Shown here one piece after another: positions 8,084 through 48,123 of a DNA stretch of 64,000 nt. Numbering within the stretch: the first letter of the stretch is position 1; each line of letters starts with the position of its first letter. Under the pieces are notes generated by a model. The model was not told the DNA's origin. It ran no database searches and saw only the letters and a list, made by a program, of their open reading frames with translations. The stretch is from an uncultured Candidatus Saccharibacteria bacterium (GTDB lineage: Bacteria; Patescibacteriota; Minisyncoccia; Phycocordibacterales; PALSA-1337), in assembly GCA_964532285.1 (NCBI GenBank), contig CAZHHB010000001.1, forward strand, positions 895 to 64,894. The letters run 5' to 3'. The position numbers were made by a program, and so were the translations under genes.

Positions 8084-8085
8084 TT

Positions 8086-10855: not shown

Positions 10856-10869
10856 ATTATAAAATTAAA

Positions 10870-11220: not shown

Positions 11221-11247
11221 TGTATTTGTATTGAATGTCCCAGAGGA

Positions 11248-16235: not shown

Positions 16236-16269
16236 ATTATCTTTCCTACTTTCTTTGCCCTCCGTAGCT

Positions 16270-17782: not shown

Positions 17783-18001
17783 CTATTTTTCCTCGCCCGC
17801 CGTAGCTTTAGCGGAGGCTGGGTTGGAACTTAGTGCTGTCATTATCCTAGCGATGTCTTTCCTTATGGAATACCCTTCTTTGACATTCTTGGTCTTGGCA
17901 CCGGCCGCCCCAAACCTAAAAACTCTCAAAGCTTCTCGTTTATCATTGAGCATTTTTGCCAAATCGGCGGCTGTTTCATTTTTGATTTTGAATTTTTTCA
18001 T
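17783..18001 (-). CDS. rpmC: 50S ribosomal protein L29
   Basis: 72 aa. ELRVFRFGAAGAKTKNVKEG. The C-terminal codons overlap a copy of the GTAGCTTTAGCG hairpin motif. Confidence 0.85.
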   Translation of the reverse strand: MKKFKIKNETAADLAKMLNDKREALRVFRFGAAGAKTKNVKEGYSIRKDIARIMTALSSNPASAKATAGEEK

Positions 18002-18051: not shown

Positions 18052-18477
18052 TTAAACTCTGCTAACTACCTTCGTCTTGACCGGCAACTTCGTCCCCGCC
18101 TTACGAAGTGCTTCGGCTGCAACCTCTGGTTCTACCCCGTCTATCTCAAACATGATACGGCCAGGTTTGACCTCGGCAATGAATCCCACTGGATCACCCT
18201 TACCTTTTCCCATTTTCACTTCGGCTGGCTTCTGTGTAAATGGATGATCTGGGAATATTCTAATCCAAACTTTTCCGGACTTCGTAGCGTAACGAGCCAT
18301 AACCTTGCGGGCAGCTTCTATCTGATTTGAAGTGATGCGGGCGTACTTCATGGCCTTCAATCCATATGAACCGAAAGCGATGTTTATGCCACGAGTATCA
18401 GCATGAGCCATCTCCTTGTCAGGATGAGTGCGCATTGTGAACCACTTACGATGTTTTACTTTTTTTGGGAATAACAT
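18052..18477 (-). CDS. rplP: 50S ribosomal protein L16
   Basis: 141 aa. MLFPKKVKHRKW... Confidence 0.92.
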   Translation of the reverse strand: MLFPKKVKHRKWFTMRTHPDKEMAHADTRGINIAFGSYGLKAMKYARITSNQIEAARKVMARYATKSGKVWIRIFPDHPFTQKPAEVKMGKGKGDPVGFIAEVKPGRIMFEIDGVEPEVAAEALRKAGTKLPVKTKVVSRV

Positions 18478-18486
18478 GATGGTTTA

Positions 18487-19161
18487 TTAGGCGGTCTTTT
18501 GGTCTTTCTTGAAAATTTCACCCTTGTATATCCAAACCTTGATTCCGATATTGCCATATGTCATATGAGCTTCTTCTCTGGCAAAATCGATATCGGCTCG
18601 CAAGGTCTGTAGAGGAATCCTGCCTTTCTTGAGTTCCTCAGAACGAGCGATCTCTGCTCCACCCAGACGACCACCTAGACGAATACGAATACCCTGAACT
18701 TCTTTGTTGGCCATAACCTTCTCTATGGTCTGTTTCATAACACGACGGAATGGAAGTCTCTTTTCGAGTGCTTCGGCTACCATCATAGCGGCAATCGGAG
18801 CATTTGACTCTGGATTACGAACTTCTTCTATATCCATTTTGAGTTCAATCCCCTTGATCTCAGCCTTTTTCTTGTGCAGAAGTTTGAGGACTTTTTCGCG
18901 TAATTTGACGACACCATCACCAGCCTTACCTATAAGCATACCTGGACGAGAAGTTTTGATGATGACACGGAGTATTTTCTGATTGCGTTCTATGTCTATA
19001 CCACCGAGATAATTGGCGCGGAGTTCTTTGCGTAGAAATTCACGGATCAAAAGATCACCCTTCAAAGAAGTGCGGTAAGTCTTGTCTGTTGAAAACCAAC
19101 GACTCCTCCAATCGCGGATGATTCCTAGTCTATGTGAATATGGGTGTACGGTATGTGACAT
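18487..19161 (-). CDS. rpsC: 30S ribosomal protein S3
   Basis: 224 aa. KH-domain and S3 C-terminal domain pattern. Confidence 0.92.
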   Translation of the reverse strand: MSHTVHPYSHRLGIIRDWRSRWFSTDKTYRTSLKGDLLIREFLRKELRANYLGGIDIERNQKILRVIIKTSRPGMLIGKAGDGVVKLREKVLKLLHKKKAEIKGIELKMDIEEVRNPESNAPIAAMMVAEALEKRLPFRRVMKQTIEKVMANKEVQGIRIRLGGRLGGAEIARSEELKKGRIPLQTLRADIDFAREEAHMTYGNIGIKVWIYKGEIFKKDQKTA

Positions 19162-19162
19162 G

Positions 19163-19552
19163 TTATTTATTTTTAATCTTCTTCACAACCTTCTCTTTGG
19201 CCTCTTTGACGACCTTCTTGGCTTCTATCGGTGCAAGCATGATACTGATATGACTCATTCTGTGTTTGATCGGGTGTGCTGAACCTCTAGAGACGGGCTT
19301 GTGACGCTTCATTACGAAACCAGCATCAACACGGATCTCTTTTACGAAAAGGACATCTTTCTCTATCTTATGATTGTGTGAAGCGTTGGCAATAGCAGAA
19401 TCCAAAAGGACTCCCAATGGATTGCCAGCTTTCTTGATCACTGTATCCAAGATATTTTTTGCCTGGAGAACCCCCTTCCCGCGGATCATATCAGCGACCA
19501 AACGGACTTTTCGTGGAGAGATGCGGTAATTTTTGAGTGAGGCGGTAATCAT
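19163..19552 (-). CDS. rplV: 50S ribosomal protein L22
   Basis: 129 aa. ISPRKVRLVADMIRGK. Confidence 0.92.
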   Translation of the reverse strand: MITASLKNYRISPRKVRLVADMIRGKGVLQAKNILDTVIKKAGNPLGVLLDSAIANASHNHKIEKDVLFVKEIRVDAGFVMKRHKPVSRGSAHPIKHRMSHISIMLAPIEAKKVVKEAKEKVVKKIKNK

Positions 19553-19561
19553 GGTGGTGTA

Positions 19562-19912
19562 TTATTTCTTTGTAGATGCTGTCGTGGCAGCTTCTTTGGC
19601 GGATTTTGCAGCAGCCATCTCAGCTTCCTTGGCCTTCATCTCTATCTCCTTTTGCATCTTACCTCCATGTCTGACGAATTTCTTCGTAGGCGAAAATTCA
19701 CCGAGGCGGTGTCCAACCATATCCTCGGTAACCAATACATCTATATGTGCCTTGCCATTGTGTACGCCAAAGGTAAAACCGAGCATCTCTGGTGAAATCT
19801 GAGATCGGCGTGACCACGTCTTTATAGAAGCCGTATCTGCCGGCTTTTTTCCGAGAATCTTCCTGAGAAGTCTCTCTTCAACATATGGACCTTTTTTAAG
19901 CGATCGTGACAT
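19562..19912 (-). CDS. rpsS: 30S ribosomal protein S19 with a Lys/Ala/Glu-rich C-terminal tail
   Basis: [16 protein letters not shown]...[26 protein letters not shown]. Confidence 0.9.
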
Positions 19913-20001
19913 TTTTGGATGTATAAATTAAATAAAAATGGAAGATATCATCTTCCTTTCTTGAAAAGACGATAAAAATTAGCCCTGAAGAGCTTGGTTG
20001 C

Positions 20002-20030
20002 ATGTTAACAGAGCCGTAGATTGAAGTCAA
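20002..20030 (-). promoter_or_regulatory. Promoter TTGACT-N17-TAACAT upstream of rpsS, part of a ~60-nt module also found upstream of rplD
   Basis: Read on the minus strand: TTGACTTCAATCTACGGCTCTGTTAACAT. A nearly identical TTGACTTCAATCTCTGCCTCTGTTAGTAT occurs at 25056-25084. Confidence 0.5.
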
Positions 20031-20048
20031 GGCGAAGTGCTATAATAT
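20021..20048 (+). promoter_or_regulatory. Divergent promoter for the pseudopilin operon. The -35 TTGAAG overlaps the minus-strand -35, and the -10 TATAAT is at 20041-20046. The leader is 9 nt or less.
   Basis: TTGAAGTCAA is palindromic, so it supplies a -35 on both strands. The ATG is at 20056. Confidence 0.4.
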
Positions 20049-20055
20049 ATAACAA

Positions 20056-20538
20056 ATGAAACCACTGACTAGTTCCACACTTTTTCATCGTGGCATGACT
20101 CTCGTAGAAATAATATCTGTAATAGCTATTTTTATTATAATCTTCGGCATCGGTTCATACGTATTCATAAACGCACGCAGATCAAGTGAACTCAGGGGAT
20201 TAACAGATACCATTGCATTGACACTTGAACAAGCCAAATCGAACGCTCTTATAGGTAAGGGTGGCTTAGATTTCGGCCTTAGGTTTGCTGCCGATTCATA
20301 TACTTATTTCAGTGGCAGTTCATATGTCCCATCCGATACTTCAAATCAGGTTCATGGTTTAAGTACAGGCTATCAAATAGCAAACACCTTCGCTTCTACC
20401 AGTGGAGTAGTGGTGTTCAGACACTTAACGGGTCTGCCTCAGGCTACTGGCACGGTCACTATCACTGCCCTTTCAGATCCATCAGATCCACAGACCATCA
20501 TCATAGGGAGCCAAGGAGAAATCACTGTGATAAAATAA
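20056..20538 (+). CDS. Type IV pilin-like protein / pseudopilin (GspH/FimT-like)
   Basis: Prepilin N-terminus: cleavage/methylation-type motif G-MTLVEI followed by a hydrophobic helix (RGMTLVEIISVIAIFIII). Confidence 0.7.
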   Translation: MKPLTSSTLFHRGMTLVEIISVIAIFIIIFGIGSYVFINARRSSELRGLTDTIALTLEQAKSNALIGKGGLDFGLRFAADSYTYFSGSSYVPSDTSNQVHGLSTGYQIANTFASTSGVVVFRHLTGLPQATGTVTITALSDPSDPQTIIIGSQGEITVIK

Positions 20539-20545
20539 ATAATGA

Positions 20546-21028
20546 ATGAATAAGAATACCGGCTTTAGTATTATAGAAATAGTTATTGCTGCGGCAATAA
20601 TCGTCACACTCGTGACAGCGGCGGCTGGAGCCTGGCAGTTGTATTTCAAAGTTTCCAGAACAAGTAACCAGAATACTCAAGCAGCCCTATTGACTGGAGA
20701 AGCCGCGGAGGCACTTAATCTCCTTAGGGATTCTGGTTGGACCGCAAATATATCCCCTCTTTCCCTGGGTACCACATACTACTTGTATTGGAATGGTGAT
20801 ACATATGCAACTTCGACCACCCCAATTCTCATAGATAATTCCCCATATAGTATAAGTTTTGTATTTTCTGAGATCAGGCGCGACACCACAAGCGACAACA
20901 TCGTCAGTTCCGGTGGAGCCGTCGACATTCACACACGTAGCGTGGTCATCTCCATAATGTCGTCCTCCAGTCCCCCGATGACAGTAATGCAATCTTCACT
21001 TTTACTTCATGATGTATACAAAAACTAA
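20546..21028 (+). CDS. Type IV pilin-like protein / pseudopilin
   Basis: N-terminus NTGFSIIEIVIAAAIIV (G-F-x-x-x-E prepilin signature). Confidence 0.7.
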   Translation: MNKNTGFSIIEIVIAAAIIVTLVTAAAGAWQLYFKVSRTSNQNTQAALLTGEAAEALNLLRDSGWTANISPLSLGTTYYLYWNGDTYATSTTPILIDNSPYSISFVFSEIRRDTTSDNIVSSGGAVDIHTRSVVISIMSSSSPPMTVMQSSLLLHDVYKN

Positions 21029-21530
21029 ACAAAAAGGCTTCACATTGGTTGAGACTCTCATATATATTGCAGGGGCTGTAATCGTCATAGGTATGATAGT
21101 AAGCATGCTCTATTACGCATATTCATGGTATGGGAGAGTATCAGAGCCCTCTCGTGTGGATCAGATAGGTTCTGCTTTGGTTAATAAACTTCTAGGAGAC
21201 ATTCGCGGTGGTCAGAGTATTGATCTCCCACAGAGTTCATTCGCCACGAACAATGGTACGCTAACCATAGACACCTTAACACCTTCACTGACAAATGTAA
21301 TCAAACATTATGCGTTACAAAATGGGCGTATCATATACCAAGAAAACAGCGGAGACATACAATACCTAACCCCTAGCGATATTACTGTATCGCAATTCTA
21401 CTTGAATCAAGCAACCACAACAGTTTCAAGTGCCATAAGGTTCTCTGTAAATATTGATTACCTAACCAAAACAGGCACCAGTACGAATACATATTCTGGT
21501 ATGGCTATCCTGAGAAATTCATATCAATAA
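21009..21530 (+). CDS. Type IV pilin-like protein / pseudopilin
   Basis: N-terminus KGFTLVETLIYIAGAVIVIG, a classic class III signal. Confidence 0.75.
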   Translation: MMYTKTKQKGFTLVETLIYIAGAVIVIGMIVSMLYYAYSWYGRVSEPSRVDQIGSALVNKLLGDIRGGQSIDLPQSSFATNNGTLTIDTLTPSLTNVIKHYALQNGRIIYQENSGDIQYLTPSDITVSQFYLNQATTTVSSAIRFSVNIDYLTKTGTSTNTYSGMAILRNSYQ

Positions 21531-21531
21531 A

Positions 21532-22821
21532 ATGATGTACAAACATAAACAAGGTGGATATATAGTTATTTTGAATACGCTTCTCTTTATTTCCATAATG
21601 GCGGTTATGCTTGTTGCTCTTTCTAACATAGTAGTCATTCGTTATTCATCTTCCCAAGGATATTCTTCCTCTAAACAATCATATCTTCTGGCTCATAGCG
21701 CGGCAGAAGAAGCTTTGTATCGTTTGAAAAATGGCTTGGATATACCCGCAAGCGGTTCCATCACCCTCTCGTCAGGTTCGGCCACAATAAATGTAACCGA
21801 TACACCCAACGGCAAAGAGATCACCGTCAATAGTGATTCTGGAGGATACAATCACAATATAAAGATTGGCCTGAGTCTCGGGACCGGGATCTCCTTCCAT
21901 TACGGCATCCAATCTGGCATGGGGGGCTTTGTTCTGCAGAATAGTTCGTCAGTAACCGGGAACATATATTCTGGAGGAACAGTCGTGGGTTCCGGCAATT
22001 ATATATATGGCGATGTTATCTCATCTGGATCAGGCGGACTTGTACACGGTATACATGCGACGGGGACAGTCTATGCTCATACAATCGGCAGTGTTTCGCG
22101 AGCTACTACTATAGACAAAGATGCTTATTATACAACCAAGGTCGGAACCGTCAGTGTTGGTGGTACACAATATTCAGGAAGCGATGATCAACCTGCTGTA
22201 GATTTGCCAATTTCCGACGAGCAGATTGCTTTATGGGAAGATGAGGCAGATAATTTTATAAGCAGTGGGTGTTCAGAAGGTATGTACAAGATAACATCAG
22301 ATATTCCTCTCGGCCCAATCAAAATACCTTGTAATCTAGAGATTAGTGGAAGCCCAACTATCACAATAGCTGGTCCGGTATGGGTAACTGGAAATATAAC
22401 TACAAAAAATTCTCCTACAATCAAAATATCCTCAACACTCGGCAATCAAAATGTCGCCATAATTGCAGACAATCCGGCCAACAGAAGTGGTAGTGGCGTT
22501 GTAGAGATAGCCAATAGTACAAACTTCCAAAATTCAGGAGTGGCTGGCTCTTTCGTCTTTATGATCTCGCAAAACAATAGTGCAGAGATGGGTGGAAGTG
22601 TGGAAGCAATACAAATAGACAACAGTGCGACTGCCCTAGTCGTCTATGCACCACACGGTCTTATAGCAATAGCTAATACCGCCGCCCTAAAAGAAGCCAC
22701 GGCTTACAGAATCACCTTGAAAAATTCTGCCAATGTAACCTATGATAAGGGTTTGGCCAACGCAATCTTCAAGGCTGGACCTAGTGGTGGGTACAGTTTA
22801 CTTAATTGGTCGGAAATCTAA
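21532..22821 (+). CDS. Putative minor pilin / pilus tip-associated protein (PilX/GspK-like), Gly/Ser-rich beta-rich body
   Basis: N-terminal hydrophobic helix (GGYIVILNTLLFISIMAVMLVAL) without Glu5. Last gene of the pilin operon. 429 aa. Confidence 0.45.
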   Translation: MMYKHKQGGYIVILNTLLFISIMAVMLVALSNIVVIRYSSSQGYSSSKQSYLLAHSAAEEALYRLKNGLDIPASGSITLSSGSATINVTDTPNGKEITVNSDSGGYNHNIKIGLSLGTGISFHYGIQSGMGGFVLQNSSSVTGNIYSGGTVVGSGNYIYGDVISSGSGGLVHGIHATGTVYAHTIGSVSRATTIDKDAYYTTKVGTVSVGGTQYSGSDDQPAVDLPISDEQIALWEDEADNFISSGCSEGMYKITSDIPLGPIKIPCNLEISGSPTITIAGPVWVTGNITTKNSPTIKISSTLGNQNVAIIADNPANRSGSGVVEIANSTNFQNSGVAGSFVFMISQNNSAEMGGSVEAIQIDNSATALVVYAPHGLIAIANTAALKEATAYRITLKNSANVTYDKGLANAIFKAGPSGGYSLLNWSEI

Positions 22822-22966
22822 CATACTCATATGCAATGCGTGGTCGTTATCATAGACAAAATCGTACTTACAGACAGCCAACAATAATTACCTGTGTACG
22901 ATCATCCACAAGATTTTTTCAAAAACTTTTTTAGTTGTATTGACTACGAAATTGAACATCTGGAGA

Positions 22967-23821
22967 CTAGACCCTACTAGTCATATTTTTTCCTGGCTGA
23001 CGGCGAGAGACAACGAAAACGTTGGAATATTTCTTGGAGCGACGAGTCTTCTGGCCCTTACCTGCTGGCTTGCCCCAACGAGTCTTGAGACGACGTAGAC
23101 CGCGACCAGACTTCTGTTCTCCACCACCGTATGGGTGATCTACTGGGTTCTGAGCGGAACCACGGACTGTAGGACGGATACCCATCCAGCGTGATCTTCC
23201 GGCCTTGCCAATATTGACCAAACGAGACTCTTCGTTGGAAACAGCTCCGATAGAAGCCCATGAACTCTCGTGAATCTTGCGGATTTCTGTAGACGGCATC
23301 TTGATATGTGTATAACCAGCATCGTTGGCGACTACCTGGGCAAATGAACCGGCAGAACGAACGAGCTTTGCTCCACTACCAGGCTTGACTTCTATATTGA
23401 AAATAAATGTTCCTACTGGGATTTTCTTCAGGGGAAGACGGTTACCAGTCTCAATCGGTGCGTTTTCTGATACCAAGAATGAATTGCCAACTTTCATGGT
23501 CTTTGGCAAAAGCACATATCTCTTAGCACCATCAGTATAGTTGACCAAACCGATATAACCTGTACGGAAAGGATCGTATTCAACAGTCTTCACTGTTGCA
23601 CGGACATCTTTCTTGTCATACATGAAATCAATCTCTCGAAAGAGCTTCTTGTGTCCTCCTCCTTTGTGACGAACCGTGATGCGACCAAAGGCGTTGCGTC
23701 CCATGTCTCTCTTCCATCCATGAGTGAGGGCCTTGTGTGGTTCACTTGTCGTCACATATTCTTTGAACGGCAAAACCGTCATGTGGCGTCTAGATTTACT
23801 TGTTGGTCTGAATGTTTTCAT
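22967..23821 (-). CDS. rplB: 50S ribosomal protein L2
   Basis: 284 aa. GRNAFGRITVRHKGGGHKK...MGIRPTVRGSAQNPVDHPYGGGEQ. Confidence 0.92.
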   Translation of the reverse strand: MKTFRPTSKSRRHMTVLPFKEYVTTSEPHKALTHGWKRDMGRNAFGRITVRHKGGGHKKLFREIDFMYDKKDVRATVKTVEYDPFRTGYIGLVNYTDGAKRYVLLPKTMKVGNSFLVSENAPIETGNRLPLKKIPVGTFIFNIEVKPGSGAKLVRSAGSFAQVVANDAGYTHIKMPSTEIRKIHESSWASIGAVSNEESRLVNIGKAGRSRWMGIRPTVRGSAQNPVDHPYGGGEQKSGRGLRRLKTRWGKPAGKGQKTRRSKKYSNVFVVSRRQPGKNMTSRV

Positions 23822-23829
23822 GATTTTTA

Positions 23830-24294
23830 TTATACAAAATCAATCTTATCCCCTTTCTTCAAAGTCACCATGGCTTTCCTGATACCAGAGACTGTGCCTC
23901 TGCGATTTTTTACAAACACATTCCTCATAGGTGTATTGATCATTGCTACTCTTACCGGAGAGACTTTGTATAGAACCTTGATGGCTCTTGCAACCATGGC
24001 CTTGTTGGCATTGGAAGAAACTTCAAATGTGTAAACACCTCCCTGCGATAAAATGCCGGACTTCTCTGTGATGCGTGGGCGTAGAATGACTGAGGCAGAA
24101 CTTGATTCTACACCCCCATGCAAAACCGGAACAACCATCTTGTTGTGATCAGGCTTCTTGGCGTCTGTAATAGCGGCGGTCTTGGTGGACTTTATCTTGG
24201 ATTTTACGGCCTTTTTGTCAGACACGACTTTTGCCGTCTGAGCTCCCTGCTCTAGTTTCTCATCTTTTCTTTTTTTGAATCCGAAGATAGCCAT
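23830..24294 (-). CDS. rplW: 50S ribosomal protein L23 with an N-terminal Lys-rich extension
   Basis: C-terminal L23 core VILRPRITEKSGILSQGGVYTFEV...AMINT. Confidence 0.8.
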   Translation of the reverse strand: MAIFGFKKRKDEKLEQGAQTAKVVSDKKAVKSKIKSTKTAAITDAKKPDHNKMVVPVLHGGVESSSASVILRPRITEKSGILSQGGVYTFEVSSNANKAMVARAIKVLYKVSPVRVAMINTPMRNVFVKNRRGTVSGIRKAMVTLKKGDKIDFV

Positions 24295-24311
24295 GGTAGT
24301 TAGTTATAAAG

Positions 24312-24995
24312 TTAGGCGGACTGCTTGGTTTTATCTGTTAATTGAGCTACAAACATCTTCAATGACTCTTCTGGGTTGGAAACTATCAAAAACTTGTGAT
24401 TCAAAACTGATACTGGATTGATATTGCGGAATTCTTCTATGGAAATGTTACCGAAATTGTTGAAACTCTTGGAAATAGCGTTGGTCTTCTTGTCCAAAGT
24501 AATGATGGCAGCGTTTAATTTCTTTGTGCCCAACCTCTCATAACCTTTGATGGTAGAAAGTGAAGAAATGATGGTCTTTGCATCCTTGGACTTTGGTGCG
24601 GAGATATTCATACTATCAATAAATAGAATTTCTCCCTCCTTATATTTCTTTGAAAGTATTGAAAATAGAGCTTTGATTCTGGCCTTTTTATTTATCTTCC
24701 TGGAATAATTCTGATCATTCCTAGGACCATGAGTGACTCCACCACCAACCCAGATAGGTGAACGGGATGATCCGTGGCGTGCGCGTCCTGTACCCTTTTG
24801 TTTCCATGGTTTCTTACCTCCACCACGAACCTCTCCGCGAGTCTTGGCGTGAGCGATATTGGTGCGTGAATTTGAATTCATCAAACGGACTACTTCGTGA
24901 ACCAAGTCAGCATTCCATGGAGCACCGAAAATCGCCTCTGGAAGTTTGATCTTGCCTGAAGATTTGCCTTGCTGATTGTAGATTGTGGCTTCCAT
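24312..24995 (-). CDS. rplD: 50S ribosomal protein L4
   Basis: 227 aa. [24 protein letters not shown]. Confidence 0.9.
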
Positions 24996-25055
24996 GGTTA
25001 ATTAAATAAAATGTTGAAAAATAGAAAACAAAAAGCCCCTAAGAGCGTGCTGTGC

Positions 25056-25084
25056 ATACTAACAGAGGCAGAGATTGAAGTCAA
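25056..25084 (-). promoter_or_regulatory. Promoter TTGACT-N17-TAGTAT upstream of rplD, paralogous to the rpsS promoter module
   Basis: About 70% identity over 60 nt with 19975-20045, including the -35/-10 and the downstream GCTCTTAGGGGC segment. Confidence 0.5.
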
Positions 25085-25189
25085 ATATTATGCTGTCATT
25101 ACTCAATTATATTGCCATTGCCAAATACAAACCTTATATGTATACTATTATTGTCTATCGGTTTTTCATAACTGATAGGGTATAACATC

Positions 25190-25852
25190 CTAGAGCAGTC
25201 CTCCTCGCGGAGGGCTGCTTTTGTTACTTTTCAAGTCTTCCCTGCGTTTTAATTCTCTACCCCAAATATCTGCCCCGATCTTTAGTACATCAGTATATCC
25301 GTCAGCCCCAGTTCTCAATTCTTGAGAAACATTATTTCTTGATGAAAAGATATAGATCTTCTTCCCATGTTTTTTCAAGTAATTAACTAGAGCCAAAAAA
25401 TCTGAGTCACCAGAAAATAATATTGCCGTATTATACTTTTCGGAAAGATATACCGCGTCTATCGTCATTTCAACATCCATGTTTCCTTTTTCTTGAATAA
25501 CCTCTCCATGTTCGTCAATAATACTTATTCTCTTCAGTTTCTTCTTTATAACTTCAAATCTAAGACCTTTTTTAAGGAAAGTATAAAATTTATGTTTACC
25601 GTCAATACTATATGTTCTAGTTCCTGTCGCTGGATAAGCTGTGTAGTAATAGACTTTTATAGAAGTCCCCAAATATAAACTTTTTATGTAATCAATAGTT
25701 TTTTGATAATCGAGAAAACGCCCCTTGGCTTTTTGAGCTTGCCACAGATTTGACGCGTCTATGAATACATAGATTGTGTTTGAAATTGTAATCTTGTCTA
25801 ACATACCGCCGAATATTAACACAAAAGATGTGTCTAAGGCGTATGTACCCAT
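25190..25852 (-). CDS. NYN/LabA-like domain protein (PIN-like nuclease fold)
   Basis: VFIDASNL...GNMDVEM...FSGDSDF motifs of the NYN/LabA family. Confidence 0.6.
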   Translation of the reverse strand: MGTYALDTSFVLIFGGMLDKITISNTIYVFIDASNLWQAQKAKGRFLDYQKTIDYIKSLYLGTSIKVYYYTAYPATGTRTYSIDGKHKFYTFLKKGLRFEVIKKKLKRISIIDEHGEVIQEKGNMDVEMTIDAVYLSEKYNTAILFSGDSDFLALVNYLKKHGKKIYIFSSRNNVSQELRTGADGYTDVLKIGADIWGRELKRREDLKSNKSSPPRGGLL

Positions 25853-25937
25853 ACATTACTACTAACAGAAAAAGTTTAAGGTAAATTTTATCCAACTTCC
25901 AATCCTTAATAGCTCTTCTGCCACCAGACCCCAAGTC

Positions 25938-25967
25938 GACCATTTTAGTCAACTGACTAAAATGGTC
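25938..25967. repeat. Hairpin repeat H1 of the CCATTTT...AAAATGG family (GACCATTTTAGTCA-act-GACTAAAATGGTC)
   Basis: Perfect 13-bp stem. The flanks (CCAGACCC) are shared with copy H2. Confidence 0.7.
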
Positions 25968-26011
25968 ACTAACTATTTGACCCCTATGTAGAACTGCTTT
26001 TGCTGTTAGAT

Positions 26012-27307
26012 TTACGGATTATGTCCAGTATCATCAGGTACTTTTGGGATTTTTTCATCTAGTATATCTTTTTCTATTTGTTCTGGGTCGCCATCCATCA
26101 CAACACCTTGCTCAAAAACATGGAATGCATCTCTGGCATATTTACCTTTTATAACTTTGAATGAGATAGGATCAGTAACAGGAACTCGTTTACCTTCGTA
26201 AAAGAAATTTTTCCAATCCCAAGCATATCCAGTAGCGATACATTGAAATCCTTCGAAAAAACTAAATACAAAGTTGTCGGGATTTGCTCCGATAGAATTT
26301 CCGTGATAATAGACAGTATTCCCATCTGTCCAATACCTATCAGATCCACAGGACCCAGCATCATAAGTGGGTTGACCTATGATTACCTGGAAGGATTGAT
26401 AATAGAGTTCGTCAGCGATTTTTTTGTATTCGAAATAGATATGTTTATTACTGGCAAAGTACCCCTCTCCCAAACTTACAAAATCTGTTGTCGATGCATC
26501 AGTAAGTGAAATTTTATTAAAAAACACCGTATCTTTGTCTGCCCAATAGTCTCCAACTCCAAGTTTGTGAAAAGTTAGCGGATCGGCGTTTATGACTTCA
26601 ATGGCACGATTTCTTTCTGATTCGATTGGGGAATATCGGCAAAAAGAAAACACTTTTTCTAAATTTATGAAATATAAACAACCTTTTAGATCATCACTTT
26701 TATATATTTTTTTGATATCTAGTGATAATTGATAAATTTCTGATAAGGACGGATTGTTTATATCGTAAAAATACGCTCTGTTATTGCTTGTAATTATATT
26801 ATTAGAAATATAATTGAAATCATTATTGGCTAGACCACTCACTCTTACCGAAGATCTGACCTCACCACCATAAGCATCTTTTTGTCGTATAAAGGCAATT
26901 CCTATTAGTCCATATTTGTCTTTGGCAAGATCAGTATCATTAGAAATAACCGAGAAGCTTGCTATGTCTACTGGCGGATTAAGTTGGACAATGGTTGGTG
27001 GATTACAACCAGTAAAATTGGTATTCCATATGGTATTTTTGTCACCGAAATAGTTTTCATTATAGACATGAATAGAGGCGTAGTCGATCGGTATTTCGAT
27101 ATAATCATCCCGATAAGAACAGTTGTACCTAAAATAAACATGATCCCCCATAACCCAAATATTTTTATTTATGAGCTGGGGCTTTGAGGATGGTGCGAAT
27201 TCTTTAATCTGAGACTTATTAGAAATGAAATATATAACACCCACGATTACAGTGGCCGTGAGGATGTAGTATAGTGGAAGACTTATTTTATACGATCCGA
27301 TTTTCAT
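26012..27307 (-). CDS. Membrane-anchored protein with DKNYY-family repeats
   Basis: N-terminal TM helix. Repeated DKNxVYY / DGNTVYYHG / YAxDxKNxFYEGKR segments typical of the DKNYY family. Confidence 0.5.
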   Translation of the reverse strand: MKIGSYKISLPLYYILTATVIVGVIYFISNKSQIKEFAPSSKPQLINKNIWVMGDHVYFRYNCSYRDDYIEIPIDYASIHVYNENYFGDKNTIWNTNFTGCNPPTIVQLNPPVDIASFSVISNDTDLAKDKYGLIGIAFIRQKDAYGGEVRSSVRVSGLANNDFNYISNNIITSNNRAYFYDINNPSLSEIYQLSLDIKKIYKSDDLKGCLYFINLEKVFSFCRYSPIESERNRAIEVINADPLTFHKLGVGDYWADKDTVFFNKISLTDASTTDFVSLGEGYFASNKHIYFEYKKIADELYYQSFQVIIGQPTYDAGSCGSDRYWTDGNTVYYHGNSIGANPDNFVFSFFEGFQCIATGYAWDWKNFFYEGKRVPVTDPISFKVIKGKYARDAFHVFEQGVVMDGDPEQIEKDILDEKIPKVPDDTGHNP

Positions 27308-27391
27308 GTTAATAAGACAATAACATCAAGTATTACTTATTACAATTGTTACGACCAACATTGATACTATTCAGGGTACAAAATCCGATAC

Positions 27392-28264
27392 CTATGTAAT
27401 CACCGCCAAGATAATCGCAGAGGTCAAGGCGATCACGAGACCGATCTTCTGATGTCGTTGGAGCTTTTCGTGACTTATAGCGAGACCTAGAATGACAGCG
27501 ACTATTATAGAACTCTCAGAAAGACCGGTAGCTATCGCTATCGGCACCAAACTCATAGCAAAAGCGTAAGCAATCCACGCAACATTATCAGCTATAGACA
27601 TCACTAGCATCAAGCTTCGGTTAGCCATAATGTCGCGGAACATTCTACCGAATTTTTTCTGGCTCAAAATAAAGACACTAGAAATGGTGACCATAACTAG
27701 ATTTAATATGAAATTTGCAAGAAGTGGATTTGTAATGCGCGAACCCCAGCCTAATAGAAAATCACCAAATCCCATAACTATCGCTCCTACAAAAAATATA
27801 ATCACCCCTTTTTCCAAGAAAAAGCTCTTGGTAAACTTTTTTTCCCTGAAAGAAACCATAAAAAGACCCACCATTAGAATGACAATCACAAAAATCTGTA
27901 ACCAACTAATCCTGTCTCCTAATACAAAAAAGGCAAGAAGGGAAGCCGCTGGTATTTCAAATGCGAGTAATGGTTCCAATACAGCGATCTTGCCTCTTTT
28001 GTAACCTTCAAATATTAGTAACGAGGCACAAGTAAGAAAGATTCCGGATGAAATCAAGACCATCAAACCATCACCAGATTCAACAAACAACTTCGGCAAA
28101 TCCCTGTAAACAAAAGGTAACAATACGACTGTCCCGAAGGAAGTAATAACGAAGAGCGTTTCCCAATCTCCCAACTTTCGTGTCGATTTTTGTATAGAAA
28201 AATCACCAAAACCCCAACAGAGCATGGCTATGAAGGCAAACCCTATTCCTAAACTTATAATCAT
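27392..28264 (-). CDS. EamA/DMT-superfamily transporter (10 TM)
   Basis: Two EamA-like halves, 290 aa, hydrophobic throughout. Confidence 0.65.
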   Translation of the reverse strand: MIISLGIGFAFIAMLCWGFGDFSIQKSTRKLGDWETLFVITSFGTVVLLPFVYRDLPKLFVESGDGLMVLISSGIFLTCASLLIFEGYKRGKIAVLEPLLAFEIPAASLLAFFVLGDRISWLQIFVIVILMVGLFMVSFREKKFTKSFFLEKGVIIFFVGAIVMGFGDFLLGWGSRITNPLLANFILNLVMVTISSVFILSQKKFGRMFRDIMANRSLMLVMSIADNVAWIAYAFAMSLVPIAIATGLSESSIIVAVILGLAISHEKLQRHQKIGLVIALTSAIILAVIT

Positions 28265-28313
28265 ACTTGGAACATTATAACAAACTCCATATATTTAGAA
28301 GCCCACACCTATC

Positions 28314-28351
28314 CAAGATCCGATCTAGGTATACCGAGATCCGATCTTGGA
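28314..28351. repeat. Tandem pair of the CCAAGATCCGATCTTGG-type palindrome, followed by GATAAT
   Basis: CCAAGATCCGATCTAGG (28314-28330) and CCGAGATCCGATCTTGG (28335-28351). The same palindrome occurs at 44965-44981, 45996-46013 and 46018-46034. Confidence 0.7.
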
Positions 28352-28359
28352 TAATTTTT

Positions 28360-28415
28360 ACTCATACCTCAGTGCCTCTATCGGACTCTTCTTGGACGCT
28401 TGGCTGGCAGGATAA
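28360..28415. repeat. 56-bp perfect direct-repeat copy of the 3' end (last 18 codons plus stop) of the MacB-like permease gene. It is the left boundary of the purD cassette.
   Basis: Identical to 29981-30036, which encodes ...GGYPASQASKKSPIEALRYE-stop of the permease. Confidence 0.9.
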
Positions 28416-28441
28416 CTTCCCTACTACCAGACCCTAGATCA

Positions 28442-28471
28442 ACCATTTTCGTCAACTGGCGAAAATGGTTA
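28442..28471. repeat. Hairpin repeat H2 (AACCATTTTCGTCA-actg-GCGAAAATGGTT). It shows compensatory substitutions relative to H1.
   Basis: An A-T pair in H1 is replaced by a C-G pair at the same stem position. The flanks are conserved. Confidence 0.7.
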
Positions 28472-28526
28472 CTATTATAAAATCCTCACCACGATAAACA
28501 TGGTGAGGATTGGGGAGTTAAAAAAC

Positions 28527-29834
28527 TTACTGTTGACCAGAAATATGCTTGATTGCCTTATCGCCAATATCGAGTCGCATATGTTTACCGTTGAAATGAA
28601 TCTCGTGAGCTGCCTTATAGGCTCTTTCCTTGGCAACCAACAAATTTTCACCCCACGCAGTGACACCGAGTACTCGTCCTCCGTTAGTTCCAAACATATT
28701 TCCCATCATTTTCGTACCGGCATGGAAGACTTTGACATTCTCCATTTTGGCAACACGGTCAAGACCCCAGATCATCTGATCATTGCTTTGCCCCTTAGGA
28801 TACCCCTTTGAGGAAAGCGCTACGCAGACAGAAGCCTCCGCACCTTTCCGCCAATCCAATCTAACATGTTCGAAGTCGCTAGCCGACGAACAGGCGTGGA
28901 GTATCTCGAACAGATCAGATTCAAGTCTAACCATGTATGCCTGGGCTTCAGGATCACCGAAACGAGCGTTGAATTCCAAAACCTTCAAGCCATCGTCTGT
29001 AAGCATGATGCCAGGATAGAGCATGCCACTATAATCAATACCTTCAGCCACACAGCCATCATGCCAACGAGCAATGATTTCTTCATTGATTTTCCCAAGC
29101 AGTTCACTAGTGATAAATGATGTGGGACAACATACACCCATGCCACCAGTCATCGGACCACGATCATTATCAAGTAAGTGCTTGTGATCTTGCGAAGTAG
29201 GAAATGGGTACACATTCCTCTTGTTGCAAAGTAGATGTAACGAGATTTCGGTACCAACAAGTCTTTCTTGGATAAGGATAGGCAAATTCGGATGTTCTTT
29301 GAATTTCGCATCAATAATTTCAAAAGCGTATTCTGGAAGATCAGAAATGTTCACACCTTTTCCTCTACACAGGCCATCAGATTTTATAACACAATACCCA
29401 CGGAGCTTACCTGCATACAACTTTGCTTGTTCTGGATCCGTGAAGATCTCCCCACGAGGTGACGGGATGTTCCAACGCTTCATGAAGTTATGCGAATAAA
29501 CTTTCGAAGACTCAATCTTGGCAGCTTTTTGCGTAGGAGCAAAGATCGCAAACTTATTATGGATGAACATGTCTGCAATACCCATAGCAAGCGGTTCATC
29601 AGGACCAACGATCGTAAGAGTCGGCTTATTTGAATTAGCAAAACCCAAGAGCCTAGTGCAATCAGTGGCCTTAATACTCACACACTGAACAAGCGTTCCA
29701 TTCCTCAACCTTTCTTGTGCGATACCTGGATTTCCAGGGGCACACCACAATTCCGTAATATCTGGCGAGCGTGCCAAGGACCATACAAGGGCATGTTCCC
29801 TACCACCTCCACCAACAACAAGGACAGTACTCAT
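28527..29834 (-). CDS. purD: Phosphoribosylamine--glycine ligase (GAR synthetase)
   Basis: [18 protein letters not shown]-terminus. ATP-grasp architecture. 435 aa. Confidence 0.88.
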
Positions 29835-29979
29835 ATATTTTCCTTTCGATGAGCATTTTACTAGTTTCTATTATGACTATACTGATTTCTGACACTTTGT
29901 CCAAGGTCCGACCTAGCTATCTCTAAAACATCATTTTTTACACACTGGATTCCCGCCTTCGCGGGAATGACAATTTTCC

Positions 29980-31215
29980 CTACTCATACCTCAGTGCCTC
30001 TATCGGACTCTTCTTGGACGCTTGGCTGGCAGGATAGCCACCAAAGATGAGGCCTATGAGGGCCGATACGGAGAAACCGAGCAGTGCCCCGCCCCAAGGG
30101 AAGATGAACTGCCAATTGACGCCTAACCCCTTGGAAAGTCCTAGAGCAATAACAAATGACAACAATGATCCCAAGACAATACCGATGATACCACCCATGG
30201 CTGTAAGCAAGACAGCCTCAAGCAAGAACTGACGTAAAATATCCCTATCAGTTGCACCTAGAGCTTTGCGCAAGCCGATCTCACGCGTGCGCTCTGTGAC
30301 CGCCACAAGCATTATGTTCATGATCCCAACACCACCGACAAAAAGAGCGATCGATGCCATTGCCACGAGGAAATAAGTAAGCGTATCTGTAATGGTACCA
30401 AGACGATTCGCCAAGTCCTGCTGGGTTTGAACAGTAAAGTCATCCTTGGTTGGATCCGTAATACCGTGTGTCTCGCGTAAAGTTATTTTGATATCATCAG
30501 CCGTAACAGCTACATCCTGATCAGTTTCAGCCTGGATTATAAAACGACTGAAGTATTTCTGACCTAAAATATAATCTTGCGCTGTTGTATAAGGAACGAG
30601 CACCATATCATCAAAATTAAATAATGAACCGCCGCCAGTCTCCGGCAACACACCTATCACTTTGAAATTTCTACCTTTTATTTTGACTTTCTGTCCCAAG
30701 GCTTCATCACCATCAAAGAGATGTGTTTTCACTTTTGAACCTAGAATTGCCACATCACCTCGAGATAAAACATCATCACTAGTGAAGAATTCACCCTTAG
30801 GGTGTAGATCAAACACTTCAGCCATAAGTTGTGTCGCTCCAAAGATAGAGACCTGGTAGGTATTGGAATCATGAACAGCAGAACCTGCCCCGAAGACGGT
30901 CGGCATGATGGTCTTCAATTTCGGAACATTCGCCTTATTGCGTAAAGCGACAATATCTTTTTCTTTTAATGAATCACTGAACAAAGAAGTCACATCTGAT
31001 GGTCCAGTTGGTTCCCTGCCAGGAATAACCGCTATCATATTTGTCCCGAGGCCTTGTACTTGCCCGAGTATCAAAGCTTGTGCACCTGCACCCAGAGAGA
31101 CCACGAGCATGATAGCCGTAATACCTATCACAATACCGAGAATAGTAAGGGAGGTTCTTGACCTATTCGTAGTCAATCCAGTCAATGCGGTTTTTAAGAG
31201 GTGTTTCCAGGTCAT
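29980..31215 (-). CDS. ABC transporter permease, MacB/FtsX family
   Basis: 411 aa. Large periplasmic domain between TM1 and TM2, plus a C-terminal FtsX 4-TM bundle ending in ...PIEALRYE. Confidence 0.85.
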   Translation of the reverse strand: MTWKHLLKTALTGLTTNRSRTSLTILGIVIGITAIMLVVSLGAGAQALILGQVQGLGTNMIAVIPGREPTGPSDVTSLFSDSLKEKDIVALRNKANVPKLKTIMPTVFGAGSAVHDSNTYQVSIFGATQLMAEVFDLHPKGEFFTSDDVLSRGDVAILGSKVKTHLFDGDEALGQKVKIKGRNFKVIGVLPETGGGSLFNFDDMVLVPYTTAQDYILGQKYFSRFIIQAETDQDVAVTADDIKITLRETHGITDPTKDDFTVQTQQDLANRLGTITDTLTYFLVAMASIALFVGGVGIMNIMLVAVTERTREIGLRKALGATDRDILRQFLLEAVLLTAMGGIIGIVLGSLLSFVIALGLSKGLGVNWQFIFPWGGALLGFSVSALIGLIFGGYPASQASKKSPIEALRYE

Positions 31216-31216
31216 G

Positions 31217-31933
31217 TTATTTTACAAATTCATCCTCGGCCGTTAGACGATGCTTCACTTTCCTATCACTATCTATCTCACCATCCATGAGATGGATGAT
31301 GCGTTCTGCGTGTTCAGCTGTAGAAGTCTCGTGGGTGATGAGTATGATAGTTTTCCCTTGTTTTTCATTCAAATGTTGAATGATAGACATGACATTCTTA
31401 CCTGATTTGGAATCGAGGTTGCCAGTAGGTTCATCTGCAAATATTACTTCTGGATCAGTCACGAGGGCTCTAGCTATAGCTACGCGTTGTTTCTCACCAC
31501 CAGAAAGCTCCGACGACTGATGATACATCCTGTGTTCCAAACCGACATCCTTGACGGCTTTCTGTGCCCTTTCTTCCCATTCACTTTCTGGAACATCTGA
31601 ATAATAAAGCGGCAGTTTTACATTGTTCAAAACCGAGGTACGGGCCAATAAATTGAACATCTGAAAAACGAATCCTATCTTGTAATTGCGTAGCTTTGCC
31701 GCTTCATCACCGGAATAAGATGAAATATTTTTCCCATCGAAGAGATATTGTCCACTCGTAGGGGTATCCAAAAGACCCAAGAGATGCAGGAGTGTTGACT
31801 TACCACTTCCAGACGGACCCATGATAGCCAGGAATTCACCTTTACGAACACTGAAAGTCACCCCATTCAGGGCATAAGTATCAGTCCCATCATGATAAGA
31901 CTTCTTTAGGTTTTTGACTTCAATGATATTCAT
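31217..31933 (-). CDS. ABC transporter ATP-binding protein (MacB/LolD-type)
   Basis: Walker [10 protein letters not shown]. Signature [15 protein letters not shown]. Walker [13 protein letters not shown]. Confidence 0.9.
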
Positions 31934-33459
31934 TACTTCACATATGTCACAACCTTCTCTCCTTCCGAAACACCGGAGATTATCTCTATCATACCATCAG
32001 ATCCTTTTAGACCCGTCTCAACGGGAATAATTGTGAAATTTTTACCATCAGCCTTCAGAACTCTTATAGTTTTTGAACCTTGTGAGTCAATTATTGCACG
32101 AGACGGCACGACAAGAACACCGGAGCGCTGTTTGGTTAGAATTTCTAGATTGGCAGTCATACCAGAACGAATACGCGAGTCTTTGTTATTGAAATAAAGG
32201 ACCACCTTATAAGTAGGCACTCCTTCAAGTACTGTCTCGGCTGGATCAATAGAAGTTACAACTGCAGGAAAATCGACATACTGACCATAAGCATCTAATG
32301 TTGTAGATGCTTGGTTTCCAATAACAATCCTTGCTATATCAGACTCGGCGACAAAAGCTTCTATTTTGTAGATCCCATCACTCTGAATACTGAAAACTAC
32401 ATTGCCAGGAGATACAAATTCACCAACACTTGGCTCTACTTTTGTTATCAAACCATCAACAGGAGCTACAATGCGGCTCTTTTCCAATTCGGCTTTATAA
32501 GAAGCGACTGTAGCACTTTGAGCGTTTATGGATTGCTGTGATGAACCGGCGTTTTTCAGGATAAAATTATTATTAGCTTGCTCATAGGAAGCAATTGCAT
32601 TTTCCAAGTTTGTTTTTGCACCAGTGACAGAAGTTATGGCTTGATTCTCTGCGGATAAACCGGAATTCATAGAAGACACGAGTGCATCAATAGCAGTCTG
32701 AGACATACCCGAACTGACAGGGCTGAGATTATTCACAATCGTAGACAAATCACCCGTGAAAGATTTTATTATACTTAGATAATCACCGGCCCTAGAAATG
32801 AGGACGGCGATATTATTGGTAGAGTTAGCGGAATCAACTAGATCTTTCCAGACCTTCAAAGTATCACTAACCACTAAGCGTTTGTTATTGATAGAATATT
32901 GCAACGCCTGTGACTGGGTGGAAATATTTATGGTAGGATTGACACTTTGTGGATTGTCAAAAAATACATCTAGATAATTATTGACTGCACCCTGAACCTG
33001 AACATAACCAGAACGAACAGCATTCAAGGCATCCTGTTTCGCATTTTCTAGGGCAATACTAGCAGAATCAACTTTGGATTTCTCAACACCCAGCTCTTCT
33101 GGCCTCAGACCTCTCACCAAATCATCCAACTTGGCTTGGGCAGACGCCAAAGAGGCTACTTCGCCGGCATTCTCGAGAGAAGCTATAACTTTCCCCTTAC
33201 TTATACGATCACCGACTTTGACATTTATCTTTGCAATAACACCACTTTTCTCAAAAGCCAGATCTGCCTTTTCTACAGGTAATATTTTACCAGTCACACT
33301 GACCCTTTCGACAATATTCCCCATTTTCACTTCAGTAGACTCAACAATGGGGCTCTTACCGCTACGTAAAAAACCAAAATACACAACCATCACTAAAATG
33401 ATTGCGCTTATCACTGTGTATTTATTTATGATGTACTTCTTTACAAAAGACTTCTTCAT
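31933..33459 (-). CDS. HlyD/MacA-like periplasmic adaptor (membrane fusion protein)
   Basis: N-terminal TM. Long coiled-coil, lipoyl/beta-barrel segments. Forms an operon with the ABC ATPase and permease. Confidence 0.8.
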   Translation of the reverse strand: MKKSFVKKYIINKYTVISAIILVMVVYFGFLRSGKSPIVESTEVKMGNIVERVSVTGKILPVEKADLAFEKSGVIAKINVKVGDRISKGKVIASLENAGEVASLASAQAKLDDLVRGLRPEELGVEKSKVDSASIALENAKQDALNAVRSGYVQVQGAVNNYLDVFFDNPQSVNPTINISTQSQALQYSINNKRLVVSDTLKVWKDLVDSANSTNNIAVLISRAGDYLSIIKSFTGDLSTIVNNLSPVSSGMSQTAIDALVSSMNSGLSAENQAITSVTGAKTNLENAIASYEQANNNFILKNAGSSQQSINAQSATVASYKAELEKSRIVAPVDGLITKVEPSVGEFVSPGNVVFSIQSDGIYKIEAFVAESDIARIVIGNQASTTLDAYGQYVDFPAVVTSIDPAETVLEGVPTYKVVLYFNNKDSRIRSGMTANLEILTKQRSGVLVVPSRAIIDSQGSKTIRVLKADGKNFTIIPVETGLKGSDGMIEIISGVSEGEKVVTYVK

Positions 33460-33481
33460 TCGTTACATTATAACAGAAATT

Positions 33482-34087
33482 TTATCCGACAATTTCAACA
33501 AGCGTCCCCCTCCTTCCCGGAACAGCACCCGATACATAGATAATGTTTTCTTGTTCATCAATATGAGAAATCTTCAGATTCTTGACAGTAACACGGTCTC
33601 CACCCATTCTTCCCGCCATGCGCATACCTACTGGAACATGTGTGCGTAGACCACCTCCGATAGAGCCTGGCTCGCGCTCGGAATGCTTCTGACCATGAGT
33701 CCTAGGACCGCCATGGAAACCGTGACGTTTGACCACGCCTTGGAAACCCTTACCCTTGGAGATAGCACTTACCATAACAGTGTCTCCCACTTTGAACTGA
33801 GATAACTCTATCTTATCGCCAACTTTCGCGGTTGGAGCATCGACACGAAATTCGTGTACCGAAGAGAAAGAACCCAACTCCTTGAATTGTCCTTTCTGTG
33901 CCTTGTTAATCCTATTTGGATTACGAGCACCTTCCCCCACTTGCACGGCCTCATAACCATCGACTTCTTTGTTGCGAACCTGAGTGACGACATTGCCGCG
34001 TACAGCAACAGTCGTAACCGGTACCGCTTGGCCGTCGGCGTTATAGATCTGTGTCATATTCAGCTTTCTTCCAAGGATAAATTTCAT
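33482..34087 (-). CDS. rplC: 50S ribosomal protein L3
   Basis: 201 aa. ILGRKLNMTQIY...GKGFQGVVKRHGFHGGPRTHG. Confidence 0.92.
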   Translation of the reverse strand: MKFILGRKLNMTQIYNADGQAVPVTTVAVRGNVVTQVRNKEVDGYEAVQVGEGARNPNRINKAQKGQFKELGSFSSVHEFRVDAPTAKVGDKIELSQFKVGDTVMVSAISKGKGFQGVVKRHGFHGGPRTHGQKHSEREPGSIGGGLRTHVPVGMRMAGRMGGDRVTVKNLKISHIDEQENIIYVSGAVPGRRGTLVEIVG

Positions 34088-34088
34088 A

Positions 34089-34466
34089 TTACATCATCTT
34101 TACATCAATGTTTACCCCCGATGGTAAACTCAAATTGGTCAATGCTTCGATTACTTTCGGATTCGGATTAATAATATCAATCAGACGCTTATGAACTCTC
34201 ATCTCAAACTGTTCACGGGAATTCTTGTCAATAAACGAGGCTCTGTTGACTGTGTACTTCTTGATCTCTGTTGGCAACGGGACCGGACCATGGATCTCGG
34301 CGTCATAACGAGCCGCTGTATCCATGATTTGTTTCAAAGAAGCATCCAGTATCTTGTGTTCATAAGCTCTAACCCTGATCCTCAACTGCGAAACTTGATC
34401 CGGATTCTTGGCCTTGAGCACGCGCTTTGGTCTTGCTACTTTTTTAGTTGTTTCTTTTGTTGACAT
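34089..34466 (-). CDS. rpsJ: 30S ribosomal protein S10 with an N-terminal extension
   Basis: LRIRVRAYEHKILDASLKQIMDTAARYDAEIHGPVPLPT. Confidence 0.9.
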   Translation of the reverse strand: MSTKETTKKVARPKRVLKAKNPDQVSQLRIRVRAYEHKILDASLKQIMDTAARYDAEIHGPVPLPTEIKKYTVNRASFIDKNSREQFEMRVHKRLIDIINPNPKVIEALTNLSLPSGVNIDVKMM

Positions 34467-44962: not shown

Positions 44963-44986
44963 TACCGAGATCCGATCTTGGTAATA

Positions 44987-45928: not shown

Positions 45929-45949
45929 ATCACCATCATACTCACCAAA

Positions 45950-48103: not shown

Positions 48104-48123
48104 AGGGATATCTTACTCGCACA

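Follow-up and report, generated by a model that had tools for sequence, protein, structure and literature searches.

An orphan copy of a permease gene end beside purD in a variable gap of a patescibacterial S10 operon

Genes and features at the locus

We describe here a 56-nt direct repeat in a 64,000-nt stretch of contig CAZHHB010000001.1 (positions 895 to 64,894; 'the window' is this whole stretch, itself part of a 176-kb contig), in which the 3' end of a MacB-like permease gene is duplicated on the far side of purD, a gene of purine biosynthesis. The host is a groundwater bacterium with a tiny genome that its relatives place among the Patescibacteria/Paceibacterota. On the minus strand, the genes for EF-Tu, S10 and L3 are followed by a MacA-like gene, an ATP-binding cassette (ABC) ATPase gene and the permease gene, whose end carries the first repeat copy (R). 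A 9-nt spacer then leads to a hairpin (T1), a promoter-like site and purD, after which come two further hairpins (H1 and H2), a 26-nt spacer, the second repeat copy (R'), a 6-nt spacer and a palindromic element (T2). The genes EamA, DKNYY and NYN complete the stretch, and the ribosomal protein genes resume with L4, L23 and L2 (Table 1). The earlier note on this sequence had seen only purD and H2 between the two copies, an interval that also contains T1, the promoter-like site and H1. Public gene calls for the permease and EamA begin at downstream start codons (P0126, P0246).

Table 1. Features of the locus around purD, in window coordinates.
Feature	Position	Strand	Description and basis
EamA/DMT transporter gene	27392..28264	-	First gene of the EamA-DKNYY-NYN module that fills the gap to rplD
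T2	28310..28353		Double 17-bp palindrome, CCAAGATC-C-GATCTTGG, two copies spaced 21 nt; abuts R' and precedes the EamA promoter
Shared post-stop hexamer AAAATT	28353-28358 (after R'), 29972-29977 (after R)	-	Gene strand (AATTTT on the top strand); from alignment
R'	28359..28414	-	Orphan non-coding duplicate of the permease 3' end
H2	28441..28470		Perfect 14+14 hairpin; unique in the window
H1	28481..28511	-	purD's own terminator hairpin, U-rich tail; weakly conserved with the purD 3' flank in the Patescibacteria-like contig L082
purD	28527..29834	-	Phosphoribosylamine-glycine ligase, 435 amino acids (aa), full length; TIGR00877 plus GARS_N, GARS_A, GARS_C
Promoter-like site of purD	29876..29903	-	TGGACA-16-TATAGT, 10/12 matches; overlaps a degenerate T2 half-copy at 29901-29917
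T1	29941..29973 (stem-loop 29949-29968)	-	Conserved hairpin element, GTCATTCCCGCGAAGGCGGGAATC; terminator-like, directly after the permease stop
MacB-like ABC permease gene	29980..31215	-	MacB_PCD + FtsX, 411 aa; last gene of the MacA-ABC-MacB operon between rplC and rplD
R	29981..30036	-	Functional 3' end of the permease gene: its final 18 codons and the 'TA' of the stop

A perfect duplication of the permease 3' end

The two copies are identical at all 56 positions, in direct orientation, with their starts 1622 nt apart. A chance origin is ruled out, as 100 dinucleotide-preserving shuffles of the window yielded no 56-mer match with three or fewer mismatches. The repeat thus stands as the earlier note had it, apart from a left copy set one base off. 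Its description as the last 18 codons and the stop of the permease was likewise right for the codons, which encode YPASQASKKSPIEALRYE, but only the 'TA' of the stop belongs to the repeat, and the 'GG' codons that were quoted lie outside it.

The stop codon reads TAG at R and TAA at R', a difference due to a 3-nt indel (GGG on the gene strand, 29978-29980) that distinguishes the two flanks: R continues as GGG-AAAATT-GTCATTCCC, R' as AAAATT-ATCCAAGA. The sharing of AAAATT past this indel is unexpected by shuffling (p = 0.0015) and against random AT-rich pieces of the window (p = 0.006), and the duplication therefore reaches as far as the foot of T2 beside R' and that of T1 beside R. In full, the identity starts 54 nt before the stop, crosses it and runs to one or the other of these elements. 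The spacer common to both flanks is not conserved in other species; because the similarity crosses the stop and the spacer is specific to the lineage, both copies derive from this lineage's own permease locus. R' is non-coding, since an in-frame TAG stands 9 nt upstream of it (28421-28423) and it has no start codon, and it appears to be without function. We found no dyad symmetry: a search for inverted repeats of 12 nt or more (seed 6) gave none within the copies or in their surroundings, and R folds no better than its shuffles.

Support from read-level contigs

The repeat and its borders can be followed in Logan contigs (k = 31) from runs ERR3094292 and ERR3094302, three of which match the window with 0 mismatches: L094 (19691-28388), L001 (28385-29964) and L177 (30007-34728). 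A compacted de Bruijn graph that meets a two-copy repeat with such borders breaks k-1 nt inside each copy, and the three contigs stop at 28388, 28385 and 30007, exactly 30 nt (k-1) inside a repeat copy. Because the ends coincide in this way, the 56-nt repeat and its exact borders are present in the raw reads and are not the product of the assembler that built the metagenome-assembled genome. The possibility that the length of the repeat is an assembly product (56 = k+1 for k = 55) is ruled out by the finding of the same borders in k = 31 contigs from two runs. L001 has its other end inside T1, at 29964, which suggests more T1 copies, or a strain variant, in the sample.

These breaks at every repeat border leave the pairing of the four flanks across the repeat undefined at k = 31 and unproven by such short k-mers; the pairing rests on the public 176-kb contig. 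This, together with the T1 break as a further branch in the read graph, would be compatible with an artefact of assembly or population structure, in which a chromosome with permease, T2 and EamA in succession and a purD unit existing apart from it, as a circle or in tandem (or else another strain), were threaded through the shared 56-mer. We consider such an artefact improbable. Each of the four junction types that the assembled path requires is present, and the two runs agree on the repeat borders; ordinary short reads easily span 56 nt, so the 176-kb contig is very probably read-resolved; and the break in T1 is explained by the multi-copy state of T1 in relatives. Moreover, T1 is native to its position (see below), so that a circle of R, T1 and purD could arise only by excision from the integrated form.

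A conserved permease and a variable gap

The closest relatives of the permease (84-85% aa identity; loci L088/L089 and L091/L092) share the arrangement S10-L3-MacA-ABC-MacB-T1-two small hypotheticals-L4-L23-L2, and this shared order makes the efflux operon between rplC and rplD a group-wide feature. In the distant relatives L003 and L005 the MacA-ABC-MacB operon lies between rplB and rpsS instead. T1 is found 10-29 nt past the permease stop in three lineages (the window, L088 and L091), with the equivalent position occupied throughout L088-L093, and the alignment with L088 and L091 runs past the stop into T1. The permease genes are saturated at synonymous sites relative to these loci (synonymous divergence, dS, about 2.2 or undefined); since T1 holds the same post-stop position despite this, the junction between R and T1 is native and ancestral.

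T1 is also a multi-copy hairpin resembling repetitive extragenic palindromic elements, occurring in both orientations and twice per 20-kb locus in the relatives (L088-L093), and it is 100% identical across genomes that are saturated at synonymous sites. A further string common to the window and L088, AGTTTGTTATAAT, was rejected as evidence of homology, since it is a promoter-like motif no more frequent than chance would have it.

From the permease terminator to rplD the locus is a variable gap, with different content in each genome seen: in the window it has purD, EamA, DKNYY and NYN, compared with two small hypotheticals in L088 and L091. None of the former four genes occurs within 8-10 kb of the permease in the 86 loci examined, and the 80 permease loci from GTDB lack them within 8 kb. 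Within the gap, DKNYY and NYN (25190-27307) have a GC content of 0.35 and a third-position GC (GC3) of 0.29-0.33, against window means of 0.43 and 0.42, and this lowered GC is not seen in purD or EamA. DKNYY and NYN are thus more plausible as recent foreign DNA in the gap than purD or EamA.

More generally, the S10-spc operon (18052-34466 in the window; also L003, L005, L088 and L091) is interrupted at the same three positions by cargo that varies. Between L3 and L4 lie the MacAB operon and variable genes. The L2-S19 position is taken by four opposite-strand hypotheticals in the window and by a histidine kinase in L088; L003 and L005 have the MacAB operon there. Past L5 the window has TrmB, a periplasmic binding protein and Fic, and L088 a helix-turn-helix protein.

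Insertion of a mobile element as an explanation

The earlier note had read R and R' as the attL and attR of a site-specific integration. In this scenario purD would be a non-autonomous cassette with a 56-bp attP mimicking the permease end and with its recombinase encoded elsewhere. As geometry this holds, one copy being the intact gene end and the other an orphan 3' copy: one self-contained expression unit, complete with promoter and terminator, stands between perfect direct repeats, the repeat ends a few bases from the gene end so that the gene is kept intact, and the distribution of purD is patchy. As mechanism it is weak. When an element integrates at a gene 3' end, its DNA follows the copy fused to the gene and the original chromosomal flank follows the orphan copy. 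Contrary to this expectation, the flank beside the intact permease end, supposedly that of the element, is the permease's own conserved terminator. T1 being native, the purD module would have come from a chromosome where it already lay behind the permease and T1, and not from a mimic of the gene end.

Other observations point in the same direction. We scanned the open reading frames (ORFs) of at least 110 aa in the window for recombinases, transposases and pur genes, and found no integrase, recombinase or transposase in the 1.6-kb interval or in any such ORF of the window; the note had proposed that a cognate enzyme be sought. R has no dyad-symmetric core. Relatives with the repeat and no purD between its copies, which the note had also envisaged, were not seen: in no relative examined is the permease 3' end duplicated, this end does not look like a recurrently used att site, and purD adjoins the permease gene in no other genome seen. 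The composition of purD is native (see below), and no similarity was found to viral contigs, phage records or plasmids, and an origin in any of these was rejected. Together these points make site-specific integration unlikely. The collections searched held no genome close enough to serve as an empty-site comparison, the relatives being saturated at synonymous sites and carrying other downstream genes.

A transposon or insertion sequence with target-site duplication was rejected on three grounds: the ends of the insert lack terminal inverted repeats, there is no transposase, and the duplication measures 56-65 nt rather than the short 2-14 bp of such elements. Formally, the structure still equals an insertion with a 56-65-nt target duplication, as would result if a double-strand break with nicks staggered by about 60 nt had captured a purD segment and been filled in, with no homology step. 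We regard this as very improbable, for the insert would have to start with T1, which is native to the site, and the missing inverted repeats and transposase count here as well; target duplications of 56-65 nt are not typical of known transposition. An integron cassette was also rejected, as H2 is only a 30-nt perfect hairpin, purD has its own promoter-like site and there is no integrase. Nor is H2 a repeated element or an attC: it occurs once in the window and, among the fetched loci, only in L001, a read assembly of the same stretch.

purD and EamA appear to have been relocated

The identification of purD in the earlier note agrees with a score of 407 bits against TIGR00877 (cutoff 288), residues 4-428 aligning with profile positions 3-424 of 425. 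Only two close homologs emerged from 5.8 billion protein clusters, at 75% (P0002) and 66% (P0003). Below these, identity falls to about 50-54%; the few such matches with a named source are verrucomicrobial (three listed, 50-53%), and the best match below the close pair, P0004 (54%), lies in a gene context outside the candidate phyla radiation. Orthologs in L082 and L086, both Patescibacteria-like contigs, lie downstream of a tRNA_bind gene, 1.5-3 kb from it; this tRNA_bind gene shares 82-85% identity with its counterpart in the window, at 42759-43094. Nucleotide similarity to these two purD loci extends from about 29890 to 28462, taking in the promoter, purD and H1 and excluding H2, the spacer and R'.

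By composition purD is typical of the window (GC 0.452 and GC3 0.415, against means of 0.432 and 0.419, with a low codon-usage distance), which rules out a compositionally foreign gene. Its nonsynonymous divergence (dN) from the two orthologs is 0.17-0.25 with dS saturated (dN/dS is therefore not given), and this combination argues that purD is old in the clade and under constraint. purD looks like a long-standing gene of the clade that has moved, as has the neighbouring EamA. The lone, horizontally acquired purD proposed before therefore keeps its patchy distribution, with just two close homologs, and loses its foreign and recent character to the native composition and the related orthologs. 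As for the other pur genes whose presence the earlier note had asked about, none was found in window ORFs of at least 110 aa, and the relative L082 has further ones beside purD. L082 carries two GARS (purD-type) genes with 39% mutual identity and a purC-purE (SAICAR synthase-AIR carboxylase) fusion (2812-4107, 7861-9351 and 10001-11419).

The orthologs of EamA (55-69%) normally follow ftsE-ftsX-pyrG-exonuclease, or pyrG directly. With the usual places of both genes at other loci, purD and EamA both look relocated into the gap. We found no sign of a permease-EamA adjacency among the relatives of EamA: in 80 metagenome loci scanned, the upstream ABC ATPases were FtsE in ftsEX-pyrG-exo-EamA synteny, and in L095 the gene upstream of a 68% EamA is unrelated. 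A conserved pairing of purD with EamA was also rejected, as EamA follows purD in L086 but the two EamA proteins are only 26% identical over 87 residues.

A proposed recombination scar between two versions of the locus

We favour, with about even confidence, the view that the repeat is a recombination scar in the variable gap of the S10 operon, rather than an att site in use by a mobile element. Two modules occupy the gap, T1-purD with its own promoter and terminator and operator-EamA-DKNYY-NYN, and the joint between them is the orphan last 56 nt of the permease with about 6-9 nt of its downstream spacer. In the likeliest and simplest history, two versions of the locus, permease-spacer-T1-purD and permease-spacer-T2-EamA-DKNYY-NYN, would have existed in the same or a very close population, starting to differ a few bases past the permease stop. 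The permease 3' end could then have served as the homology through which the versions were combined, leaving a single non-homologous joint (x|R').

Two routes would give this result. One is a Campbell-type single crossover with a circularised chromosomal fragment. The other is homology-facilitated illegitimate recombination of linear DNA taken up from outside, with a single homologous crossover and an illegitimate joint at -54 of the permease gene; for this process, Kirchberger and colleagues in 2017 refer to work published in 2002 by de Vries and Wackernagel and by Prudhomme and colleagues. Either route would keep the permease intact with its native terminator and displace an identical 3' fragment downstream. 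Both the route and the second version of the locus are what we infer from the arrangement itself.

Several features of the locus are consistent with a scar. The permease (84-85% in the nearest relatives) is a conserved anchor upstream, and R' sits at the joint of the purD and EamA modules. The window encodes ComEC (46673-48103), PilB-like and PilC-like proteins, which make DNA uptake plausible, as well as RecJ; recA was not seen in the window. At a neutral divergence of more than about 5% per site, a 56-mer has less than a 5% chance of staying unchanged (exp(-56d)), and since the non-coding 56-mer is still perfectly identical, the event must be recent relative to any sampled relative. Repeats of 56 bp in direct orientation would also allow purD to be lost by RecA-type loop-out.

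Some points weigh against the scar. We saw neither of the parental versions, permease-T2-EamA lacking purD or permease-T1-purD lacking R', in GTDB genomes, the 80 EamA metagenome contigs or the protein collection, and the saturation of the nearest relatives at synonymous sites means that a stepwise history is not reconstructable. The illegitimate joint x|R' has no clear microhomology; a 9-nt match beside R', AGTAGGGAA, is not significant, whether taken as microhomology or as a third copy. Furthermore, an integrase targeting the gene 3' end would also yield a repeat ending almost at the gene end, and with a recombinase scan that covers 64 kb of the 176-kb contig, a recombinase acting in trans may be encoded elsewhere.

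R' might alternatively be what is left of a second, tandem MacB paralog, mostly deleted or replaced, whose 3' end had been made identical by gene conversion. Many of the more distant relatives do have two tandem MacB genes that share short identical tracts. Such tracts measure 128 nt at 95% in L016 (6784-6911 / 8045-8172), 38 nt at 100% in L030 (8872-8909 / 10239-10276) and 85 nt at 100% in L014 (9136-9220 / 10195-10279), the last of these abutting a run of N (a scaffold gap); at 95-100%, and mostly near the 3' end, in pairs that are 45-51% identical overall, they point to gene conversion between MacB paralogs. All relatives with at least 56% permease identity, however, have a single MacB, and the interval between T1 and R' is filled by purD and its signals with no other trace of a paralog. 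The identity also runs past the stop into the lineage-specific spacer, which fits a copy of the same gene. A paralog remnant thus seems quite improbable.

A more mobile version of events can be imagined, to which we give a low probability: the 1.6-kb R-T1-purD unit would be a minimal, integrase-less mobile module that loops out and re-enters at the permease 3' end through host recombination or a trans-encoded recombinase. More broadly, fixed gaps in the ribosomal-protein operon of these Patescibacteria would act as gene-capture sites for metabolic genes such as purD and EamA, exchanged between strains.

T2 and other repeats in the window

The T2 palindrome occurs at four places in the window and in none of the 96 loci searched. 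Double sites lie in front of EamA (28313-28350) and in front of the superoxide dismutase (SOD) gene (45997-46034), the latter directly preceding a GGTATAAT -10 box. A single copy (44965-44981) is upstream of a Peptidase_M50-like gene, and the degenerate half-site at 29901-29917 lies over the -35 of purD. T2 is probably an operator, and its palindrome looks like that of a small regulon.

Three further repeats were seen. A perfect 113-nt inverted repeat (3922-4034 / 5748-5860), with hairpins in each arm, brackets one gene, 4069-5433(-), for a Beta-CASP/metallo-beta-lactamase RNase J-like protein. This is a second single-gene unit in the window that is bounded by long perfect repeats, whose arms may delimit a segment able to invert or be bidirectional terminators that were duplicated. 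An intergenic hairpin motif, CCTCCGTAGCTTTAGCGAAGGAGG, has three copies (16245-16292, 17783-17830 and 51639-51686), and a 54-nt AT-rich repeat with an internal duplication, ATAAATTCCTGATAAA, is found at 45935-45988 and 48110-48163 (85% identity).

Significance and comparison with known systems

If the locus does carry a scar, it offers a worked example of how gene order changes in ultra-small, DNA-scavenging Patescibacteria: cargo would be stacked beside a conserved anchor by recombination with taken-up or sister DNA, even in the normally rigid S10 operon, and no mobile-element machinery would be needed. Patescibacteria are usually described as lacking the purine pathway. A partial pathway in a small clade whose relatives lack one (purD here; in one relative purD with the purC-purE fusion and another GARS gene) is relevant to what such bacteria obtain from their hosts. 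The importance of the locus is otherwise modest and would rise only with a demonstration of excision and re-integration.

As a scar, the duplication would add one more case to a type of event already known. The closest counterpart is the 3'-end displacement by homology-facilitated illegitimate recombination that has been proposed for type VI secretion (T6SS) effector-immunity arrays and for Rhs and contact-dependent inhibition loci (Kirchberger et al., 2017, PMC5361080). As there, a conserved upstream gene would be the homology anchor, incoming DNA would bring a new gene end together with downstream cargo, and the old 3' end would be pushed downstream to lie as an orphan at the joint of the modules; the host, too, has DNA-uptake genes (ComEC, PilB/C). 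The differences are that the displaced end in the window is identical to the new one and not a variant of it, that there is a single orphan and no array, that the cargo is a metabolic gene, and that the mechanism is deduced here with no donor variant found.

Islands and prophages that integrate at gene ends with duplication of att, whether at tRNA and tmRNA 3' ends or in protein genes such as dusA (PMC4482086), share with this locus the direct repeats that flank an insert, one copy completing the target gene and the other an orphan. In contrast to these, the window has no integrase in 64 kb, an insert of 1.6 kb with one cargo gene, a native flank (T1) beside the intact gene and a site that does not look reused in relatives. 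The microcin H47 island of E. coli, which is integrase-less and flanked by direct repeats and excises by recombination between them (PMC3191183, PMC5426353), is likewise a small insert bounded by direct repeats without a site-specific recombinase of its own. By analogy, the purD unit could be excised by general or RecA-independent recombination between its repeats; here, though, the repeats are copies of a gene 3' end instead of dedicated att sites. Finally, a single-gene unit followed by a hairpin (H2) recalls the gene cassettes of integrons. The unit in the window differs in having no IntI, attI or Pc, with purD under its own promoter, and at 30 nt and without a good R''/R' core, H2 is unlike an attC (about 57-141 bp, with R''/L''-L'/R' cores).

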